Below are positions 3,617-62,016 of a stretch of 64,000 nt of DNA, piece by piece. The position numbers and the translations under genes were made by a program. A model generated the notes under the pieces. That model was not told where the DNA came from, ran no database searches, and saw only the letters and a list, made by a program, of their open reading frames with translations. This DNA is from Sphaerochaetaceae bacterium. Its GTDB lineage: Bacteria; Spirochaetota; Spirochaetia; Sphaerochaetales; Sphaerochaetaceae. How positions within the stretch are numbered: the stretch's first letter is position 1; every line of letters begins with the position of its first letter. The DNA is taken from assembly GCA_024699225.1 (NCBI GenBank), contig JAILPZ010000046.1:1661-65660 (forward strand), given 5' to 3'.

Positions 3617-4429
3617 TTAACCCGGCTGCTTTCCAATATAAGCAAGGATACCGCCGTCAACATACAGAACGTGACCGTTAACAAAGTCTGATGCATGAGA
3701 AGCAAGGAAGAGTGCCGGACCCTGAAGGTCTTCCGGAGTTCCCCATCTCTCTGCCGGTGTCTTTGCAACAATAAACTGGTCAAACGGATGGCGGCTACCG
3801 TCCGGCTGACGCTCTCTGAGAGGAGCTGTCTGCGGTGTGGCAATATATCCGGGTCCAATACCGTTACACTGAATGTTGTACTTACCGTACTCTGAACAGA
3901 TGTTTCTTGTGAGCATCTTAAGTCCGCCCTTAGCTGCTGCATAAGCACTGACTGTTTCTCTTCCGAGCTCACTCATCATTGAACAGATGTTAATGATCTT
4001 ACCTTCATTCTTCTTAATCATTCCGGGAAGAACTGCCTTGGCAACAATAAACGGACCGTTGAGGTCAACATCTATAACCTGGCGGAAATCTGCTGCTGAC
4101 ATCTCGAGCATAGGAATTCTCTTAATGATTCCTGCGTTGTTAACAAGAATATCAACTGATCTTCCGCAGTCTTTTTCAATCTGCTTTACGCATGCGTTAA
4201 CAGCTTCTTCATCTGTAACATCACAGACATATCCGTGAACATCCTTGATTCCTGCTTCTGCATATGCCTTGAAGCCTCTTTCAAGAGCTTCGTCATTTCT
4301 GTCATTAAAAACGATTGATGCACCGGCCTTTGCAAAGGCTGAAGCAATACCAAAACCGATTCCGTAGCTTGCTCCTGTAATCCAGGCGAGTTTGCCCTTG
4401 AGTGAAAATTTATCTTCTAAATAGCTCAT
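3617..4429 (-). CDS. short-chain dehydrogenase/reductase, gluconate 5-dehydrogenase / KduD-like
   Basis: TGASYGIG Rossmann motif, NNAG, and catalytic Y-x3-K (YAAAKGG). SD GGAGGG upstream. Substrate not determinable from sequence alone. Confidence 0.8.
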   Translation of the reverse strand: MSYLEDKFSLKGKLAWITGASYGIGFGIASAFAKAGASIVFNDRNDEALERGFKAYAEAGIKDVHGYVCDVTDEEAVNACVKQIEKDCGRSVDILVNNAGIIKRIPMLEMSAADFRQVIDVDLNGPFIVAKAVLPGMIKKNEGKIINICSMMSELGRETVSAYAAAKGGLKMLTRNICSEYGKYNIQCNGIGPGYIATPQTAPLRERQPDGSRHPFDQFIVAKTPAERWGTPEDLQGPALFLASHASDFVNGHVLYVDGGILAYIGKQPG

Positions 4430-4520
4430 AAGCCCTCCACTATCTATGATAAGGCCCGCCGCCCAAAAATGAAAGTGTTATTCAAACGTTGAATCTTTTG
4501 ATTATTCAGACAATCTGAAA

Positions 4521-5327
4521 TCACTTTTGGCGTGCCCTGAAGCTTTCAACTACCTTTTTCTGCCTTTCATCCATGAAGCAATAGATCTTCTTTTCTATCT
4601 CCTGCGGGATTCCAAAGACGGCCTCAGCTATTGCGCCGCAGATTGCTCCGGTGGTGTCACAGTCCCCGCCTATGCACATGCAGTTTCGTATGGAGTCCTC
4701 AAAATCACTTGCCTCATACAGGCTCTGGAATGCTGCCTGGCAGGTGCCGTCACAGACGCTGTACCACCTGTAGTTCTTTCTAAGGTAAGCCATGTCATAC
4801 GGGATTTTGTAGTAGTGTCCCTCCTCGTATGTTTTAAGCTCCTCCTTATTAAAGCCGTTTCTGGCAAGAAAAATCTGCACGGCTGTAGCCTCAGCTCCCA
4901 TAATTCCGTCCGGATGGTTGTGCGTTACTTCCGTCACCGCGCGGCTCATCTTAATGCAGTCTTCAAGATCCCTGGCAGCCCAGCCAACAGGAGAGACCCT
5001 CATGGCAGAGCCGTTTCCGCATGAGTTGTAAGGACCCATATCCGGATATCTCAGCCACTGTGCAAAATGTCCGCCGTAGCCTGCACGGGGATAGAGGGAG
5101 CCGAACTCCCTCATCCTCTTAACAGCAAATTCTGAGAGCTTTGAATAGTCGTTCTTATCCCGAAATCCGCTGTCTTCCCAGTCCATGATGGCCTGAGCCA
5201 GTGCTATTGTCATGATTGAGTCATCTGTCAAATTACAGGATGGCATGAGAAACTCAAACTTCTTTGTATGAATATTGTGCCACTCAAAACGTGAACCAAC
5301 TGTATCTCCAATTATTGCACCCAGCAT
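4521..5327 (-). CDS. ADP-ribosylglycohydrolase (ARH/DraG) family protein
   Basis: 268 aa with GAIIGDTVGSRFE, NSCGNGSAMRVSPVGW and GGDCDTTGAICGAIAEA blocks characteristic of the ARH fold. SD GGGAGG lies inside the end of the vWA gene. The ATG overlaps the vWA stop (TAATG). Confidence 0.85.
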   Translation of the reverse strand: MLGAIIGDTVGSRFEWHNIHTKKFEFLMPSCNLTDDSIMTIALAQAIMDWEDSGFRDKNDYSKLSEFAVKRMREFGSLYPRAGYGGHFAQWLRYPDMGPYNSCGNGSAMRVSPVGWAARDLEDCIKMSRAVTEVTHNHPDGIMGAEATAVQIFLARNGFNKEELKTYEEGHYYKIPYDMAYLRKNYRWYSVCDGTCQAAFQSLYEASDFEDSIRNCMCIGGDCDTTGAICGAIAEAVFGIPQEIEKKIYCFMDERQKKVVESFRARQK

Positions 5328-5974
5328 TATTTGTTCCTCCCTTCGTAGTCTGTCTTAATATCCTTTGCCCAGTTCTCTTCAACTATTCCGCTTCTTCTGA
5401 AAGAAGCAACTGTTTCATGCACGCAGGTATAGTTTATGTCCACTCCTGCCTTGTCATTATGGTAGTTAACAGCCCTGTCTGCTTTAATTCCATAGGCACC
5501 GGCTGTTTCTACAGCATCAATGTTTGCCCCCAGGAAGAGAAACTCCCAGCCGTATTTCTCCTGCTGCTTTAAAATCATGCTCTTAACGGTTTCTGAAGTA
5601 TACATTCTGGATGCATTCTCAAGTCCGTCTGTTGTTATAACAAACATGGTTTTCTCAGGTCTGTCCTCTTCTCTTGCATACTTGTGTACGTTTCCTATGT
5701 GGTGCACCGAAGAACCCAGGGCATCTATAAGAGCAGTACATCCGCGTGCAATATACTCCTTTTCAGTAAGTGGCGGGACTTCTGAAACCGGGACTCTGTC
5801 AAAAATCACCCTGGATTCAGAATCAAACAGAACAAGAGAAATCAGAGCCTCGCCCTCTTCCTTCTTCTGTTTCTCAATCATGGAGTTGAATCCTCCGATT
5901 GTATCCTGTGTAAGAGCACACATGCTTCCGCTGCTGTCCAGGATAAATACAAGTTCAGTTAAATCTTTTTTCAT
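5327..5974 (-). CDS. small cytoplasmic von Willebrand factor A (vWA) domain protein
   Basis: MIDAS motif DxSxS (FILDSSGSM) plus ITTDGLEN. No signal peptide or TM segment. The track start at 6007 is TTG; the ATG at 5974 is preceded by GGAGG with a 7-nt spacer. Confidence 0.8.
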   Translation of the reverse strand: MKKDLTELVFILDSSGSMCALTQDTIGGFNSMIEKQKKEEGEALISLVLFDSESRVIFDRVPVSEVPPLTEKEYIARGCTALIDALGSSVHHIGNVHKYAREEDRPEKTMFVITTDGLENASRMYTSETVKSMILKQQEKYGWEFLFLGANIDAVETAGAYGIKADRAVNYHNDKAGVDINYTCVHETVASFRRSGIVEENWAKDIKTDYEGRNK

Positions 5975-6035
5975 TTGGTTACCTCCGCTTTTTAAGCTTG
6001 TAATCAAATGATATTGATTTTCATTTTTTCATGGC

Positions 6036-7052
6036 TTAACTGTCAGTTAATGCTCCCGGAAGCATCTGGAGATCCAGGGAATACAAAGCTTCGTCTATCT
6101 TGTAACGGTCATATATTCCCTCGGATATAAACGAAGAAACAACTATATCCTGCAAAGAAGACTGGTTTATGGCATAGCCGGCCTTCATCAGCATCTCCAC
6201 TGTTTCATCCAAAGAAAGCTTCAGTTCTATGGCTATGGCAAACACAGTAAGCTTGGAAGGATTTGACTTGCCTGTAAGAATCTTCCAGAACCCGACACCG
6301 GACATACCTATAGGGTCCTGCACCGCTGAGTGCGGGAGGTTTCTCTCCTTAAGAAGCCTTGAAAGCATGGCCCCGAAATTCTCATCCAGTACTACTCTGT
6401 CAAGATTCTTCTGTGTTGGATTTTTTATGAGGTCATTTATTAAATCATTGTCCAGAAAACGTACTACATTCTCACAACAGATTCCAGGTTCAGATAAAGG
6501 CTCTTCGTCGTATTCGTTCTCACTTCTATAGTAGCGGACAATATTTTCACTTACTGCTTCAAAGATTTCTGAGGGGACAGTCCTGCCCCAGCGGCCGTAG
6601 ACTGCAAGAGTTATCTCCATGTCGGGAAACTCTTCCATCTTTTCCTTTATGGCATCTGTTGCAACGGTAAGGGCCGCCTCTTTGGGAAATCCCTTTCCCT
6701 GGGACGAGATGAGAGGAAAGGCTATGCTCTTGCAGCCTAAGTGGTCTGCAAGTGAGATTGCGTTTCTGTAGCATGAACCGAGAACTATATACTCAAGATC
6801 GCTCTTTCCGGTCCAGTGAGGACCTGAGGTGTGAATTATGTATTTGCAGGGAAGACCAAAGCTCTCAGTTACCCTGACCTCTCCCAGATGAAGAGGAGGA
6901 TAGCATGAAAGCTCTTCTTCAAGATCCTCCCCGCACTTTTCATGTATGGCCCTGTCCACCCCGCCACCGCCTGAATATCTGCTGTCTGTGGGGTTTACAA
7001 TTGAATCTGCCTTTAACTCAGTAATATCTGCATAAATAATTTTAAAACTCAT
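6036..7052 (-). CDS. macro domain (MacroD-like ADP-ribose binding/hydrolase) fused to a C-terminal XRE-type HTH
   Basis: From the ATG at 7052: MSFKIIYADITELKADSIVNPT..GGGGVDRAIH..KYIIHTSGPHW..SIAFPLISS, which are macro motifs. The C-terminus FGAMLSRLLKERNLPHSAVQDPIGMSGVGFWKILTGKSNPSKLTVFAIAIELKLSLDE resembles a Cro/C1 HTH. The 46-codon upstream extension in the track overlaps the preceding gene and was rejected. Confidence 0.8.
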   Translation of the reverse strand: MSFKIIYADITELKADSIVNPTDSRYSGGGGVDRAIHEKCGEDLEEELSCYPPLHLGEVRVTESFGLPCKYIIHTSGPHWTGKSDLEYIVLGSCYRNAISLADHLGCKSIAFPLISSQGKGFPKEAALTVATDAIKEKMEEFPDMEITLAVYGRWGRTVPSEIFEAVSENIVRYYRSENEYDEEPLSEPGICCENVVRFLDNDLINDLIKNPTQKNLDRVVLDENFGAMLSRLLKERNLPHSAVQDPIGMSGVGFWKILTGKSNPSKLTVFAIAIELKLSLDETVEMLMKAGYAINQSSLQDIVVSSFISEGIYDRYKIDEALYSLDLQMLPGALTDS

Positions 7053-37341: not shown

Positions 37342-37998
37342 TTATCCTCTTCTAAAAAGATTTTTCCAAACCTTGAATGGACTGATTCTGAAGCGCACCA
37401 GACAGTAAATCCAGGCCATCAGCATTCCCGCCACATGAACTATTGAGCTCACTCCGTTTGAAATGAAGATGGAGCTGAAAATTTCAATAATCAGGAAGCC
37501 GAGAATAAGAACTCCGAGCCTTATCGGGAAAACAAAGAACAGAAGAACCTTTCCGTTGGGAACCATAACCGAGGCAAGGAACATAAGGGCATAGATAGCA
37601 CCGGATGCTCCGTAGATTACTGCATTTGGCATGCCTGTAAGGTTGTAGACAAGTGAGCCTACAGCACCGGCAAGTGTTCCGGTCAGGAAATAGAAAAGCA
37701 GGAACTCCTTGCTTCCGAGAGCTCTTTCGAGCATGCTGCCGAACATAAAGAGCATGTACATGTTAAAAAGAATGTGGAAAAAGTCCACATGAACAAACAT
37801 GTATGTCACATACTGCCAGATATAGCCCTTGCCTATCCATCCGGGGATAAGACTTAAATAATAAATCAACGGGATCCCGCTGAAACTGATGTTTGTAAGG
37901 TTTAAAAGAATATAAACTACAAGGTTGACCGCAATGATATAAATTACGGAGTTGAAATAAACATATTTGAACTTTTTGTTCAGTCTTAAATTTGCCAT
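37342..37998 (-). CDS. rhomboid family intramembrane serine protease
   Basis: Multi-TM protein with the GASGAIYAL (GxSG) Ser motif and a downstream His in SSIVHVAGML. The ATG at 37998 is supported by the promoter geometry. Confidence 0.8.
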   Translation of the reverse strand: MANLRLNKKFKYVYFNSVIYIIAVNLVVYILLNLTNISFSGIPLIYYLSLIPGWIGKGYIWQYVTYMFVHVDFFHILFNMYMLFMFGSMLERALGSKEFLLFYFLTGTLAGAVGSLVYNLTGMPNAVIYGASGAIYALMFLASVMVPNGKVLLFFVFPIRLGVLILGFLIIEIFSSIFISNGVSSIVHVAGMLMAWIYCLVRFRISPFKVWKNLFRRG

Positions 37999-38004
37999 AG
38001 ATAA

Positions 38005-38033
38005 ACAATAATCACGGGAAATAAACATGGCAA
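38005..38033 (-). promoter_or_regulatory. putative sigma-70 promoter TTGCCA-N17-TATTGT, with the -10 placed 6 nt before the rhomboid ATG
   Basis: Minus strand reads TTGCCATGTTTATTTCCCGTGATTATTGTTTATCTATG. No SD is present. Confidence 0.45.
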
Positions 38034-38034
38034 G

Positions 38035-38080
38035 TGTGAAATAATTGCACACTAATAATTGCTGGTGAAATTATTTCACA
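38035..38080. promoter_or_regulatory. two related 17-bp palindromes (kGTGAAATwATTkCACA), centres 29 bp apart
   Basis: 38035-38051 is TGTGAAATAATTGCACA and 38064-38080 is GGTGAAATTATTTCACA. In each, 7 of 8 arm positions are self-complementary, and the two sites share 14 of 17 positions. Confidence 0.45.
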
Positions 38081-38201
38081 ACCTGCACCGTAAAATGCAC
38101 AATAAAAGACTGATTTTATAAGCCTTATGCATACTGTTTTAAGGGCTTTTAAAATATGATTTTAAGAATTTTTTATTTTTTCAGGCATGAAAAACAAAAG
38201 T

Positions 38202-38216
38202 TGGCACGTTTCTTGC
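38202..38216 (+). promoter_or_regulatory. sigma-54 (-24/-12) promoter-like element, TGGCAC-N5-TTGC
   Basis: TGGCACGTTTCTTGC matches all 10 specified consensus positions with canonical spacing. It is the only such match I found on either strand of the window. Confidence 0.45.
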
Positions 38217-38227
38217 TTTATAGAAGG

Positions 38228-38318
38228 CAGAGCAACAGTTTTTTCATACCTCCTTTAGTGTGATTTCTGGCGTCCGGCATCTCTCCCATTCTATTAAGCC
38301 GGATGCCAGCTTTTTTTT
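38228..38318 (+). ncRNA. candidate ~90-nt small RNA (sigma-54 element to terminator), no ORF
   Basis: The predicted start is about 12 nt after the -12 GC and the end is at the T8 tract. The RNA contains UACCUCCUUU (anti-SD-like) and a C-rich terminator loop. The plus strand has no ATG-initiated ORF in this interval. Confidence 0.3.
38267..38318 (+). terminator. plus-strand rho-independent terminator in the rlmE/rhomboid intergenic region
   Basis: CTGGCGTCCGGC (38267-38278) pairs with GCCGGATGCCAG (38298-38309) as 12 bp including one G-U. The loop is 19 nt, followed by C and T8 (38311-38318). There is no T-run on the opposite strand. Confidence 0.65.
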
Positions 38319-38327
38319 GCCATTTTG

Positions 38328-38930
38328 TCAGGCCTTCTTATCAAGCCCTATCAGGTAGGTTTCAAAGCTGTCGTTGCGGCAGGCCTTGGGTTTAAGGGTT
38401 TTTGCCTTTGTGAAAATCTGCCTCATTCTGATCAGCAGTTCCTGCTGTCCCCCGCCCTGGAAGATTTTAATAACAAGATTCCCGTGAACTTTCAAATGCT
38501 CTTCTGCCAGATACAGAACCTGCTCGGCAAGCCACTCGCTTCTGGACGTGTCAACTGTTCTGTTTCCTGTTGTCATGGGAGCTGCGTCACTGATTATGGC
38601 GTCAAAAGGACCGTGGGATATCAGCTTTTCGCGGATTTCAGGAGAAAAGGCGTCCCCCGTGTATTCAATTACGGTTGGAGGGACAGGGTTAAGACGCAGA
38701 GGATTGAGGTCTACGGCAACAATGGTGCCGTTTCCCTTCAAGAGCATTCTGTGCGTGTACAGAGTCCAGCTTCCCGGAGCAGCTCCTACGTCAAGAACCG
38801 TATCTCCGGGTTTTACAATATTATTCTGCTGCTGGATTTCTTCAAGTTTATAAACACTGCGCGCAGGGTAACCTTCCCTGTGCGCGCGCTGAGTATAAGA
38901 ATCTGCTGTGTCTCTTCTGCTTTTTGCCAT
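38328..38930 (-). CDS. rlmE: 23S rRNA (uridine2552-2'-O)-methyltransferase RlmE/FtsJ
   Basis: 200 aa with RSVYKLEEI and DVGAAPGSW SAM motifs, and DAAPMTTGNRTVD. Confidence 0.9.
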   Translation of the reverse strand: MAKSRRDTADSYTQRAHREGYPARSVYKLEEIQQQNNIVKPGDTVLDVGAAPGSWTLYTHRMLLKGNGTIVAVDLNPLRLNPVPPTVIEYTGDAFSPEIREKLISHGPFDAIISDAAPMTTGNRTVDTSRSEWLAEQVLYLAEEHLKVHGNLVIKIFQGGGQQELLIRMRQIFTKAKTLKPKACRNDSFETYLIGLDKKA

Positions 38931-38937
38931 ACAGAGA

Positions 38938-40782
38938 TTATATCAGAAGAGAATGAAGCTTTACAGCAAACTCTGCCGGATTCTTGGGCATGACACCTTC
39001 TGAAAGAAGGGCCTGGTCAAGAAGGACAGAAGAAGCATCTGCAACAAAGGTCTCGTCTTCAGATAAGGCAATCTTCTTGACAAAGGGATCTTCGGCATTG
39101 ATCTCGAGAACAGGTGCGCTCTCAGGCATACCTGTCTGACCCATGGCCTTGAGAAGCTGCTGCATCTGGACAGTCGGGTCGTTTGAGTCTGCTACAACTA
39201 CAGCAGAAACACCTGAAAGGCGTGAGGAAACCTTAACGTCCTTAACGCGGTCTCCGAGGGCCTTCTTAATCTTCTCTGCAACCTTCTTGTCTTCCTTTGC
39301 AACCTTCTTCTTGTCTGCAAAGTCGTCCATGGCGTCTGTCTTGTTTACAGCCTTAAGATCAAGGTCCTTGTACTTGCCCATAGAACCAATTACAAGTTCG
39401 TCTATATCATCTGTCATAAGAAGAACTTCGTAGCCCTTCTCCTTGTAGGAGGAAAGAAGCGGAGAATTCTTCAGAGTCTCTTCTGCAGCACCTGTAATGT
39501 AGTAAATGCTCTTCTGGTCACTCTTCATTCTTTCCTTGTACTGAGCAAGAGATGTGTAGCCTTCAACTTCAGAGCTCTTAAAGCGTACCAGCTCGAGAAG
39601 ATCGTCGCGGTTTGCATAGTCCTGGTAAAGACCCTCTTTAAGAGGTCTGTTGTACTGCTCAATAAACTTTGTATAAAGCTCAGGATTCTGTTCTGAAATC
39701 TTTTTGAACTCTCCCAGAAGCTTCTTTACAGAGGCTGTTCTGATTGCAGACATGACCTTGTTCTGCTGAAGAATCTCACGGGATACGTTAAGAGGAAGGT
39801 CCTCACTGTCAATAATACCGCGGACAAAGCGCAGATATGTTGGCAGAAGCTCCTTGTCGTCATCTGTAATGTATACACGTCTTACGTAGAGTTTTACGCC
39901 GGGCTTGTAGTCAGCATGGTACATGTCCATAGGAGCCTTGGCAGGAATGAAGAAGAGTGTTGTGTACTCTGTAGCACCCTCTGCCTTTGTGTGGATGTAG
40001 AAAAGCGGGTTCTCTGTGTCGTAGGAAGTATTCTTGTAGAAGTCGTTGTAGTCCTCTTCCTTCAGCTCGCTCTTGCTTCTTCTCCAGAGGGCGGAAGCAC
40101 TGTTGATTTTTTCAACTTTGTGTTCGGTTCCGGTGACATTGTACTTGTCATCGTAGGTGTTCTGGTCGTAAGCAAGGTAGATCGGGTAGGCAATATGATC
40201 GCTGTACTGCTTGACCAGGTTCTCAATCTGCCATCTGTTGGCGTACTCCTTGCCCTCTTCGTTGAGGTACAGCGTGATGGTTGTGCCGCAGCTTTCACGT
40301 TCGGCTTCGTCGATAGTGTATTTTTCCCTGCCGTCACTGGCCCACTTGTAGGCCTTGTCGCTTCCCCAGGCCTTTGAGACAACCTCGACCTTCTCGGCTA
40401 CCATAAAGGCGGCGTAGAAGCCTACACCGAACTGACCGATAAGGTTGCTGTCAGACTTCTGCTCCTCTGTAAGGTTTGCAAGAAACTTCTTTGTGCCTGA
40501 GTGTGCAATTGTTCCCAGGTTCTCAGAAAGCTCGTCGTGAGTCATACCAATTCCGTTATCTGAAATGGTAAGAGTTCTCTTGTCTCCCTCTGTGAAGGAG
40601 ATATCAATTCTCATTTCATCTGTGGTGAAATTTTCTGTCAGGGATTTATATCTGAGCTTGTCCAGAGCATCTGAAGCGTTGGAGATAAGTTCTCTTAAAA
40701 AGATTTCCTTGTGTGAATAAAGTGAATGAATAATAAGCTGCAGAAGATCAGTTACTTCTGTCTTAAACTGTTTGCGTTCCAT
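38938..40782 (-). CDS. htpG: molecular chaperone HtpG (Hsp90)
   Basis: 614 aa with FLRELISNASDALDKLR and GQFGVGFYAAFMVA blocks. SD GGAGG upstream. Confidence 0.95.
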   Translation of the reverse strand: MERKQFKTEVTDLLQLIIHSLYSHKEIFLRELISNASDALDKLRYKSLTENFTTDEMRIDISFTEGDKRTLTISDNGIGMTHDELSENLGTIAHSGTKKFLANLTEEQKSDSNLIGQFGVGFYAAFMVAEKVEVVSKAWGSDKAYKWASDGREKYTIDEAERESCGTTITLYLNEEGKEYANRWQIENLVKQYSDHIAYPIYLAYDQNTYDDKYNVTGTEHKVEKINSASALWRRSKSELKEEDYNDFYKNTSYDTENPLFYIHTKAEGATEYTTLFFIPAKAPMDMYHADYKPGVKLYVRRVYITDDDKELLPTYLRFVRGIIDSEDLPLNVSREILQQNKVMSAIRTASVKKLLGEFKKISEQNPELYTKFIEQYNRPLKEGLYQDYANRDDLLELVRFKSSEVEGYTSLAQYKERMKSDQKSIYYITGAAEETLKNSPLLSSYKEKGYEVLLMTDDIDELVIGSMGKYKDLDLKAVNKTDAMDDFADKKKVAKEDKKVAEKIKKALGDRVKDVKVSSRLSGVSAVVVADSNDPTVQMQQLLKAMGQTGMPESAPVLEINAEDPFVKKIALSEDETFVADASSVLLDQALLSEGVMPKNPAEFAVKLHSLLI

Positions 40783-61342: not shown

Positions 61343-61960
61343 ATGCTGATTCTCAAGACGGAACGCCAGGTGGAGCTGGTTGTTAAAAAATCAAGATTTA
61401 TAGCAATTGCAAGAAAATGCACCACGCCTGCAGAGGTAAAAACCCTTGTAGATGAGACAAGGCGTCTTCATCCGTCAGCAAATCACGTTGTCCACTGCGC
61501 CGTTATGGGAAACCAGTTTTCCTTCAGTGACGACAGGGAGCCGAAGAACACCGCGGGCCGCCCTGCTTTTGAGGTTCTCAAAGGCAGCGGAATTTCAAAT
61601 ATATGTGTTCTGATTGTCAGATACTTTGGCGGCACCCTTCTTGGAACAGGTGGCCTGGTCAAGGCATACGGAGATTCAGTTAAGGCTGTTTTAGACGGAA
61701 TAGAGACAGAGGAGCTTACAGAAAAAACACGCTTTTCCCTGGTCTTTGGCTATGAGTACTATGAGAGTCTTAAAAGAGTGTTTGCAGAAACTGAAACGGC
61801 CGTTGAGCAGGAAGCCTTCGGAACCCACATAAACATAATTGCAAGCACCCCGAAAGATAATTATGAAGAACTGATAAAAAAAGTATCCGACCTTACCAAC
61901 GGTAAAACACGGCCGGACACAATTTCGGATGGAGAGGGATTCGAACCCTCGGTACAATAA
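61343..61960 (+). CDS. yigZ: YigZ / IMPACT-family protein (UPF0029)
   Basis: KKSRFIAIA, SDDREPKNTAGRPAFEVL and VRYFGGTLLGTGGLVKAY blocks. The start at 61343 was chosen over the track start at 61157, which overlaps deoC. The last 35 nt overlap the tRNA gene. Confidence 0.75.
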   Translation: MLILKTERQVELVVKKSRFIAIARKCTTPAEVKTLVDETRRLHPSANHVVHCAVMGNQFSFSDDREPKNTAGRPAFEVLKGSGISNICVLIVRYFGGTLLGTGGLVKAYGDSVKAVLDGIETEELTEKTRFSLVFGYEYYESLKRVFAETETAVEQEAFGTHINIIASTPKDNYEELIKKVSDLTNGKTRPDTISDGEGFEPSVQ

Positions 61961-62016
61961 AGAAACTGTACGGCAGATTTCGAGTCTGCTACCTTCGACC
62001 TCTCGGACATCCATCC
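61926..62016 (-). tRNA. tRNA-Ser (anticodon CGA), long variable arm, CCA not encoded
   Basis: Minus strand reads GGATGGATGTCCGAGAGGTCGAAGGTAGCAGACTCGAAATCTGCCGTACAGTTTCTTTATTGTACCGAGGGTTCGAATCCCTCTCCATCCG. Acceptor stem GGATGGA/TCCATCC, anticodon stem GCAGA/TCTGC with loop CTCGAAA, T-arm GAGGG-TTCGAAT-CCCTC, discriminator G. Confidence 0.85.

Follow-up and report, generated by a model that had tools for sequence, protein, structure and literature searches.

A spacer of 330 nt between rlmE and a rhomboid gene, within a 64,000-nt stretch of DNA from a Sphaerochaetaceae bacterium (contig JAILPZ010000046.1; the whole stretch is hereafter called the window), very probably holds a conserved, stand-alone small RNA (sRNA) gene with a sigma-54-type promoter. 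Promoter, transcript body and terminator are conserved together in ~200 copies, which strongly supports the initial annotation of this site as a sigma-54-dependent sRNA gene carrying an anti-Shine-Dalgarno (anti-SD) motif. Taken overall, the observations are probably best explained by an independent, ~91-nt non-coding RNA gene that works by a three-step mechanism, and we lean modestly towards the view that its product acts in trans by anti-SD pairing. The architecture of the transcription unit is read from sequence conservation, which also points to the putative sigma factor and activator. The elements of the unit, as they lie in the window, are as follows.

38202-38216, plus strand: sigma-54 type promoter TGGCACGTTTCTTGC, with the -24 GG at 38203-38204 and the -12 GC at 38215-38216
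38228-38318, plus strand: predicted sRNA of ~91 nt, 5'-CAGAGCAACAGUUUUUUCAUACCUCCUUUAGUGUGAUUU-hairpin-U8, starting at 38228 +/-2
38239-38266, plus strand: conserved single-stranded seed U6-CAU-ACCUCCUUU-AGUGUGAUUU, with columns invariant in alignment A1 of the family
38267-38318, plus strand: Rho-independent terminator with a 12-bp stem, a 19-nt loop, C38310 and U8 at 38311-38318
38035-38051, no strand assigned: candidate activator site 1, TGTGAAATAATTGCACA, a perfect TGTG-N9-CACA palindrome centred ~185 bp before the predicted start
38064-38080, no strand assigned: candidate activator site 2, GGTGAAATTATTTCACA, TGTG-N9-CACA with one mismatch, its centre 29 bp from that of site 1
38100-38199, no strand assigned: AT-rich stretch with many A/T tracts that separates the palindromes from the promoter, read from the sequence

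The transcription unit and its conservation

The promoter TGGCACGTTTCTTGC matches all 10 specified bases of TGGCAC-N5-TTGC, has its GG and GC exactly 10 nt apart, and is the single exact match on either strand of the window. Dinucleotide shuffles gave an expectation of 0.12 exact matches (at least one match in 11 of 100 shuffles), confirming the initial annotation, which had called this full match unique and put its chance expectation at ~0.1. When one mismatch was allowed, 4 matches were found as compared to 3.99 expected, which is the chance level. By itself a single promoter motif is only suggestive; its significance comes from conservation. As a test for selection on the promoter, we searched metagenomes with a pattern that describes the RNA body only, AGAGCAACAGTTTTTT-N0-8-CCTCCTT, and then inspected the DNA upstream of each copy retrieved. 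TTGGCA(C/T)-N7-GC was present in 94 of the 95 distinct upstream sequences, as compared to 1.2% of random 45-mers drawn from the same contigs. Within this element TTGGCA and TGC reach 2.0 bits per position, the intervening and following bases are nearly free (0.1–1.1 bits after TGC), and the TGGCA and TGC columns are invariant in the 43-sequence alignment A1. The distance from the -12 GC to AGAGC is 12–22 nt across the family and 12 nt in the window. Judged by this pattern of conservation, the -24/-12 element is under selection. A reading of the promoter as a chance motif was rejected, the element being conserved in the family together with the RNA body.

The predicted transcription start, near 38228, is the first base of a conserved CAGAGC that lies 12 nt past the -12 GC, so that conservation begins where a sigma-54 transcript should start, while positions -11 to -1 are variable. 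The 5' region that follows, comprising a U-run, ACCUCCUU and GUGUGA, is near-invariant and predicted to be unpaired; the RNA columns invariant in alignment A1 are the U-run, ACCUCC, UU and GUG, and ~40 nt of the RNA, including CAGAGCAACAG and GUGUGA, are invariant. Across 133 distinct copies the mean unpaired probability of CCUCC was 0.78, as compared to 0.55 for the whole RNA. The anti-SD motif named in the initial annotation, UACCUCCUUU, is indeed present, but at 38247-38256 rather than 38248-38257, a displacement of one position. ACCUCCUUU equals the canonical 3' end of 16S ribosomal RNA, where the anti-SD sequence lies, with an identity of 9 nt. Folding of the window copy also predicts a small hairpin near the 5' end, CAUAC/GUGUG, which was set aside, since relatives have CAAAC or CAAC at this place without any compensating change.

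The terminator stem is formed by a 5' arm, CTGGCGTCCGGC (38267-38278), and a 3' arm, GCCGGATGCCAG (38298-38309), joined by 12 pairs including one G-U, and its 19-nt loop, AUCUCUCCCAUUCUAUUAA, carries CUCUCCC. A simple terminator scan with a loop limit of 8 nt had missed the hairpin on account of this 19-nt loop. Folding of the RNA from 38226 to 38320 gave -29.8 kcal/mol (z = -3.9), and no shuffled sequence folded as well. Read from the minus strand, the hairpin has A8 in front of it and lacks a U-tract behind it, and it is therefore a terminator for plus-strand transcripts only; a 12-bp hairpin with T8, a CUCUCCC loop and this same polarity had been proposed initially, and all of these hold. 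RNAalifold recovers the hairpin, and 8 of its 9 consensus pairs show compensatory changes. In the 45 best matches to a covariance model of the family (described below), 98% of cells are paired, 88 cells show double changes as compared to 20 +/-5 in shuffles, and the covariation score of the terminator is 0.64 as compared to 0.22 in shuffles. When the pairing partner was slid by 1–3 columns as a control, pairing fell to 31–54%. The closest relative of the window differs from it at two stem positions and keeps the pairing at both (C-G to U-A and G-U to A-U). This covariation, together with the changes in the closest relative, indicates that the hairpin has been selected as a plus-strand RNA structure. 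The initial annotation had also envisaged an outcome in which the hairpin is kept in relatives and the -24/-12 element is not, and we found the opposite: the promoter is invariant and the sequence of the hairpin drifts with compensatory changes.

To define the family, we fetched relatives of the window via RlmE, obtaining 80 loci from species-representative genomes (best 96% identical; loci are cited below by L-number). They come from Sphaerochaetaceae, Sphaerochaeta, Pleomorphochaeta and unnamed Spirochaetales, many from the rumen. The promoter pattern recurs beside rlmE in many of these loci, often two or three times in tandem, and is followed as in the window by CAGAGCAACAGTTTTTT(T)CA(T/A)ACCTCCTT..GTGTGATTT and then by a hairpin of variable sequence with a T-run. 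A covariance model built from the 43-member alignment gave 62 strong matches (E <= 1.4e-10) in the 80 rlmE loci and 77 at E < 1, a further 136 matches in metagenome contigs, and, within the window, just a single match (38196-38315, 90.5 bits, E = 2.6e-17). Counting by pattern revealed 205 copies, corresponding to 133 distinct RNAs at 147 loci in Sphaerochaetaceae genomes and metagenomes, with predicted RNA lengths of 55–129 nt (median 91). Complete Sphaerochaetaceae chromosomes with the RNA include OZ223274.1, OY782505.1 and OY782833.1. The copies are single or, in many genomes, form groups of two to three tandem siblings, every one of which has palindromes, a promoter and a terminator to itself. 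In the closest relative (L001, from the metagenome-assembled genome, or MAG, RUI458) the sRNA is 87% identical to that of the window and the flanks are ~78% identical.

Several further features were noted among these loci. Up to three tandem copies lie ~250 bp apart in L040 (2787-3050), and also in L089, L090, L166, L173 and L174. The middle copy in L040 is broken by a run of N, probably through collapse of the repeat in assembly, and copy numbers taken from MAGs may be underestimates. A sibling subtype with the seed CAUACUCCUCCUUUU and an unrelated hairpin occurs at ~2390-2630 in L054, L055, L057, L063, L066, L070 and L075, where it adjoins rhomboid; an open reading frame (ORF) of 318 aa (L063, 2734-3690) lies between this subtype and the rlmE-proximal copy. 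Contigs with Sphaerochaetaceae-type rlmE (84–86% identity) also came from MAGs labelled Bacteroidaceae, Coriobacteriaceae, Selenomonadaceae or Phocaeicola (L014, L017, L021, L025 and L056), probably through errors of binning or labelling. Finally, TGGCATA(T/C)TC(C/T)TTGC recurs on the plus strand at ~5900-6040 in a stretch conserved across L004, L009, L021, L023 and L024, which looks like a coincidence within coding sequence and not a promoter.

Upstream of the promoter, the initial annotation had pointed to an AT-rich region and two palindromes. Both are real, and palindromes of this kind are a conserved trait of the family. We scanned 177 distinct upstream regions of family members for TGTG-N9/10-CACA with at most one mismatch; 172 of them contain such a site as compared to 13% of random segments, and 74 contain at least two as compared to 1.6% of background segments. 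These palindromes are centred 60–160 bp upstream of the -24 GG and have the consensus agTGTGaAAtttTTgCACAc, and where sRNA copies stand in tandem each copy has a site or sites of its own. The motif resembles, we presume, a pair of CRP half-sites with one extra base. Palindromes laid out in this way, with AT-rich DNA between them and the promoter, are what would be expected for an enhancer-binding activator, and we predict that such a protein binds them. By analogy with the usual architecture of sigma-54 promoters, the AT-rich segment at 38100-38199 may be a bend or an IHF-type looping region. Site 1 (38035-38051) also abuts the -35 element of a divergent promoter of the rhomboid gene, and one bound protein could affect both promoters.

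Genomic arrangement and independence from neighbouring genes

In the window the sRNA gene lies on the opposite strand to both of the genes that enclose its spacer, the minus-strand orientation of both having been described correctly from the outset.

37342-37998, minus strand: rhomboid gene, flanking the spacer on one side
38328-38930, minus strand: rlmE gene, flanking the spacer on the other side

Directly upstream of rlmE in the window lies htpG, and on the minus strand no terminator follows rlmE. The usual order in the family, with arrowheads giving direction, is proS> add> rhomboid< sRNA>(1–3 copies) rlmE> htpG<, and the last sRNA copy commonly ends 24–77 nt short of the start codon of rlmE. 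In the window and in L001, rlmE and htpG are inverted and the sRNA is convergent with rlmE. In 33 metagenome loci there is a shorter subtype, whose terminator is plain and lacks the C-rich loop and whose spacer, TTGCTATAAAGAAGGCAGAGC, is very like that of the window. Its surroundings are unrelated ones: it stands at the end of a his operon or beside a phosphoribosyltransferase with a CobW-type GTPase, an AMP-ligase, or a U32 peptidase.

How rlmE is oriented with respect to htpG and rhomboid varies by lineage (38328-40782 of the window as compared to L004-L011 and most others), which implies local inversions. In L001 a segment of ~1.06 kb (4064-5122) that is absent from the window separates the sRNA terminator from the rlmE stop codon. 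In two other near relatives, L002 and L003, the likeness to the window goes no further than the end of rlmE, and the 1.7–4 kb of downstream sequence examined contain no sRNA copy.

Both neighbours appear to have promoters of their own. All 30 of the 30 loci inspected (L015-L079) have an extended -10 element, TGnTAnAnT, 6–8 nt ahead of the ATG of rlmE, and no Shine-Dalgarno (SD) sequence. In the window the corresponding minus-strand element, TGATATAAT (38945-38937), overlaps the stop codon of htpG and precedes an ATG at 38930. As this element sits just before its ATG, rlmE has its own promoter, and its message looks leaderless from the sequence. On the other side of the spacer, the rhomboid gene is preceded by TTGCCA, a 17-nt spacer and TATTGT ending 7 nt before its ATG at 37998 (38033-37996, minus strand), again with no SD, and it too looks leaderless.

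These arrangements bear on three readings that would tie the element to its neighbours or to a protein. If it were a 5' leader or attenuator of rlmE, its terminator would control read-through into that gene, as the position of the last copy, 24–77 nt before the rlmE start and on the same strand in most genomes, might lead one to think. Such a role is scarcely credible: the extended -10 element gives rlmE its own promoter in 30 of 30 loci, every tandem copy has its own promoter and terminator, other copies end beside unrelated or convergent genes, and in the window itself the element is convergent with rlmE. A cis-antisense role, which the initial annotation had offered as the alternative to a trans-acting sRNA, would have the RNA pair with a minus-strand rlmE-rhomboid read-through transcript or interfere with its transcription, and it draws on the placement of the window sRNA in a 330-nt spacer on the opposite strand with no minus-strand terminator after rlmE. 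We regard it as very unlikely, since the convergent layout is confined to the window and its closest relative, the dominant order has the sRNA co-directional with rlmE, 33 loci have wholly different neighbours, and rhomboid is preceded by a promoter-like site of its own, positioned so that transcription would begin at the ATG. Thus of the two roles first proposed, action in trans is favoured, because in most genomes the RNA either precedes rlmE, facing the same way, or stands at an unrelated locus; the layouts found elsewhere lead us to reject antisense action in cis as a conserved role. There is next to nothing, finally, to commend a small protein gene on the minus strand, AAAGGAGGTATGAAAAAACTG..., whose product would be a short peptide (in the window, MKKLLLCLL). 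Read on the opposite strand, the seed gives a strong SD and then ATG with Lys codons, but only 1 nt would separate SD from ATG, and the U-run, at 5 to 8 nt, is not of constant length and so shifts the frame. As for the start codon, 75 distinct copies have ATG, 52 have TTG and 6 have none. The ORFs would moreover scatter in length from 7 to at least 40 codons and would have to cross the invariant promoter. Comparison of the 133 distinct copies revealed no conserved ORF in the spacer RNA on either strand, which extends the initial statement that the enclosed ~90 nt have none on the plus strand.

Proposed mechanism and competing readings

In the mechanism we propose for this independent sRNA gene, sigma-54 RNA polymerase would bind the -24/-12 element at 38202-38216 and remain in a closed complex until an enhancer-binding ATPase remodels it via DNA looping. 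The activator would bind the two TGTG-N9-CACA palindromes at 38035-38080, with the intervening AT-rich DNA aiding the formation of the loop, and transcription would start near 38228 and end at the hairpin and U8 (38267-38318). The unstructured 5' part of the RNA (the U-run, ACCUCCUUU and GUGUGA) would then pair with the SD and start regions of target messages (AAAGGAGG with A-rich flanks), and this pairing would occlude the ribosome-binding site and lower translation. A second C-rich motif, CUCUCCCCACCCC, present in the terminator loop of many relatives, may provide a second contact. Where two to three tandem siblings stand under one type of activator, they could serve dose or redundancy control, as with the Qrr sRNAs of Vibrio. 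The presence of ~40 invariant nt, including CAGAGCAACAG and GUGUGA, suggests that the RNA may have specific partners too.

We scanned for targets by calculating duplex energies against the 58 translation start regions of the window and by looking for runs of complementarity. Pairing of the seed with these start regions is 2.4 kcal/mol more favourable than that of shuffled seeds, and is of a generic SD-directed kind. The proposed mechanism has to be set against several points. No convincing specific target emerged from the 58 start regions, the runs of complementarity being at chance level, and CCUCC would pair with nearly any SD, which leaves specificity unexplained. The window loop retains only CUCUCCC of the motif CUCUCCCCACCCC seen in many relatives, and one subtype is without any C-rich loop motif. 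Six-frame scans of the window and of 191 loci for GAFTGA, ESELFGH, the Walker A motif of enhancer-binding proteins and the RpoN box gave two or three spurious low-complexity matches only, so that neither rpoN nor an enhancer-binding-protein gene was found in the 64-kb window or in ~1.4 Mb of flanks of family members; the sigma factor and its activator are accordingly those suggested by the cis elements alone. In one subtype, moreover, TTGCTATAAAG can be read as TGnTATAAA, suitably spaced from the start of the RNA.

This last point bears on the possibility that sigma-70 is used instead, with the TG of TTGC and the AT-rich bases after it forming an extended -10 promoter of the kind that this lineage uses, for example, at rlmE. 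Such a promoter has no use for TTGGCA, which stands 8 nt upstream of TGC and is invariant (2.0 bits), and no hexamer is conserved after TGC (0.1–1.1 bits). The bases that follow TGC in the window, TTTATA, are a poor match to a -10 hexamer, and distal palindromes 60–160 bp upstream suit activator-dependent sigma-54 promoters; we consider sigma-70 extremely improbable here. An unlikely reading of a different kind takes the RNA to be a global mimic of the 16S ribosomal RNA 3' end, or a decoy, which once induced would titrate SDs generally or bind a protein or ribosome component, and would shift translation from SD-led to leaderless messages instead of acting on a few targets. The 9-nt identity of ACCUCCUUU to the canonical 16S 3' end fits such a role, as do flanks that are U-rich and generic rather than gene-specific, the multi-copy genes (up to three), the apparently leaderless state of both neighbouring genes and the lack of any target that stands out. 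The ~40 invariant nt far exceed what an SD mimic needs and suggest specific partners, and stoichiometric titration of all SDs would be quantitatively demanding. Its most pointed form, in which sibling sRNAs copy the 16S tail ACCUCCUUU as a global switch that masks SDs and favours the leaderless rlmE and rhomboid messages, seems to us quite unlikely; if true, what is regulated would be how translation is initiated, and not a small set of targets.

Relation to known small RNAs

Among known systems, the sRNA gene is most readily compared with Qrr1-5 of Vibrio. Both are stand-alone genes for an sRNA of ~100 nt with a TTGGCA-N7-TGC promoter, upstream palindromes (here candidate activator sites) and a Rho-independent terminator; both exist as several siblings per genome that share an invariant single-stranded region, and in both pairing at translation start regions is proposed. 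Qrr sRNAs are transcribed with sigma-54 and LuxO, and qrr1 of V. fischeri also with SypG (PMC10162802). The present family differs in its phylum, in its dominant palindrome (TGTG-N9/10-CACA as compared to the LuxO site TTGCA-N3-TGCAA), in the tandem placement of siblings ~250 bp apart as compared to dispersed Qrr genes, in the lack of an adjacent activator gene as compared to qrr1 beside luxO, and in its seed, the SD-complementary CCUCC. The Qrr model RF00378 gave no match at E <= 10 over 37950-38400 and none at the gathering threshold in the window and five related loci.

The unit of sigma-54-type promoter, candidate activator sites and sRNA also recalls GlmY/GlmZ (RF00128, RF00083), NrsZ, CrcZ and Pxr of Proteobacteria. 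Among these, GlmY is a protein decoy and CrcZ a sponge for Hfq/Crc. In GlmY-type systems the activator gene usually adjoins, whereas none is adjacent here. Some sigma-54 sRNA families, such as Pxr, have paralogous copies (PMC5568312). Unpaired C/U-rich motifs complementary to the SD, often several per molecule, are shared with the C-rich anti-SD sRNAs, namely RsaE/RoxS of Firmicutes and NfeR1 and AbcR1/2 of rhizobia (PMC10746234, PMC8844928); the counterpart of such multiple motifs would here be the 5' CCUCC together with the CUCUCCCCACCCC loop of most relatives. There is no homology with these RNAs, which use housekeeping-type promoters under Rex/ResD, LsrB or NtrC, and their C-rich motifs lie mostly in hairpin loops, whereas the main motif of the window RNA lies in an unstructured 5' stretch. 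Covariance models of GlmY/GlmZ (RF00128, RF00083), RsaE (RF01820) and every other family in Rfam 15 gave no match to the sRNA. By analogy, then, the sRNA would work like Qrr and like the anti-SD sRNAs, yet it is a member of none of these families.

Nothing relevant was returned by Rfam 15, searched at gathering thresholds with the window and five related loci and at E <= 10 with 37950-38400. The best sub-threshold matches (FtrA, PhotoRC-II and SNORD57) were far below their gathering scores and lay at other coordinates or on the other strand. Across the window as a whole, Rfam matches only a transfer RNA of 91 nt (61926-62016, minus strand), whose length would allow a long variable arm. Sigma-54 regulons are established in other spirochaetes, where Rrp2-RpoN-RpoS of Borrelia and EbpA-RpoN of Leptospira (PMC5243855) use the same -24/-12 promoter type. 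The targets of these regulons in the literature searched are protein-coding (rpoS, amtB and lipoproteins), unlike the sRNA described here, and our literature search found no description of this RNA or of any sigma-54-dependent sRNA in spirochaetes. On the evidence of sequence comparison, this is a new RNA family of Sphaerochaetaceae and related uncultured spirochaetes, probably within the known kind of sigma-54-dependent sRNAs.

To our knowledge, sigma-54-dependent sRNAs are otherwise known almost solely from Proteobacteria (Qrr, GlmY, NrsZ, CrcZ and Pxr), and we know of essentially no exploration of sRNA biology in the non-pathogenic spirochaetes of guts and digesters. The family thus presents a clean and widely conserved riboregulator in an unexplored group, with an architecture that is conventional. 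With ~200 natural variants, a delimited architecture and cultured hosts (Sphaerochaeta and Pleomorphochaeta), it is directly testable. It is a candidate Rfam entry that would improve the annotation of metagenomes from rumen and anaerobic digesters, and it offers a handle for the cognate activator and its signal, as well as a comparison case for the independent evolution of Qrr-like circuits of sibling sRNAs.

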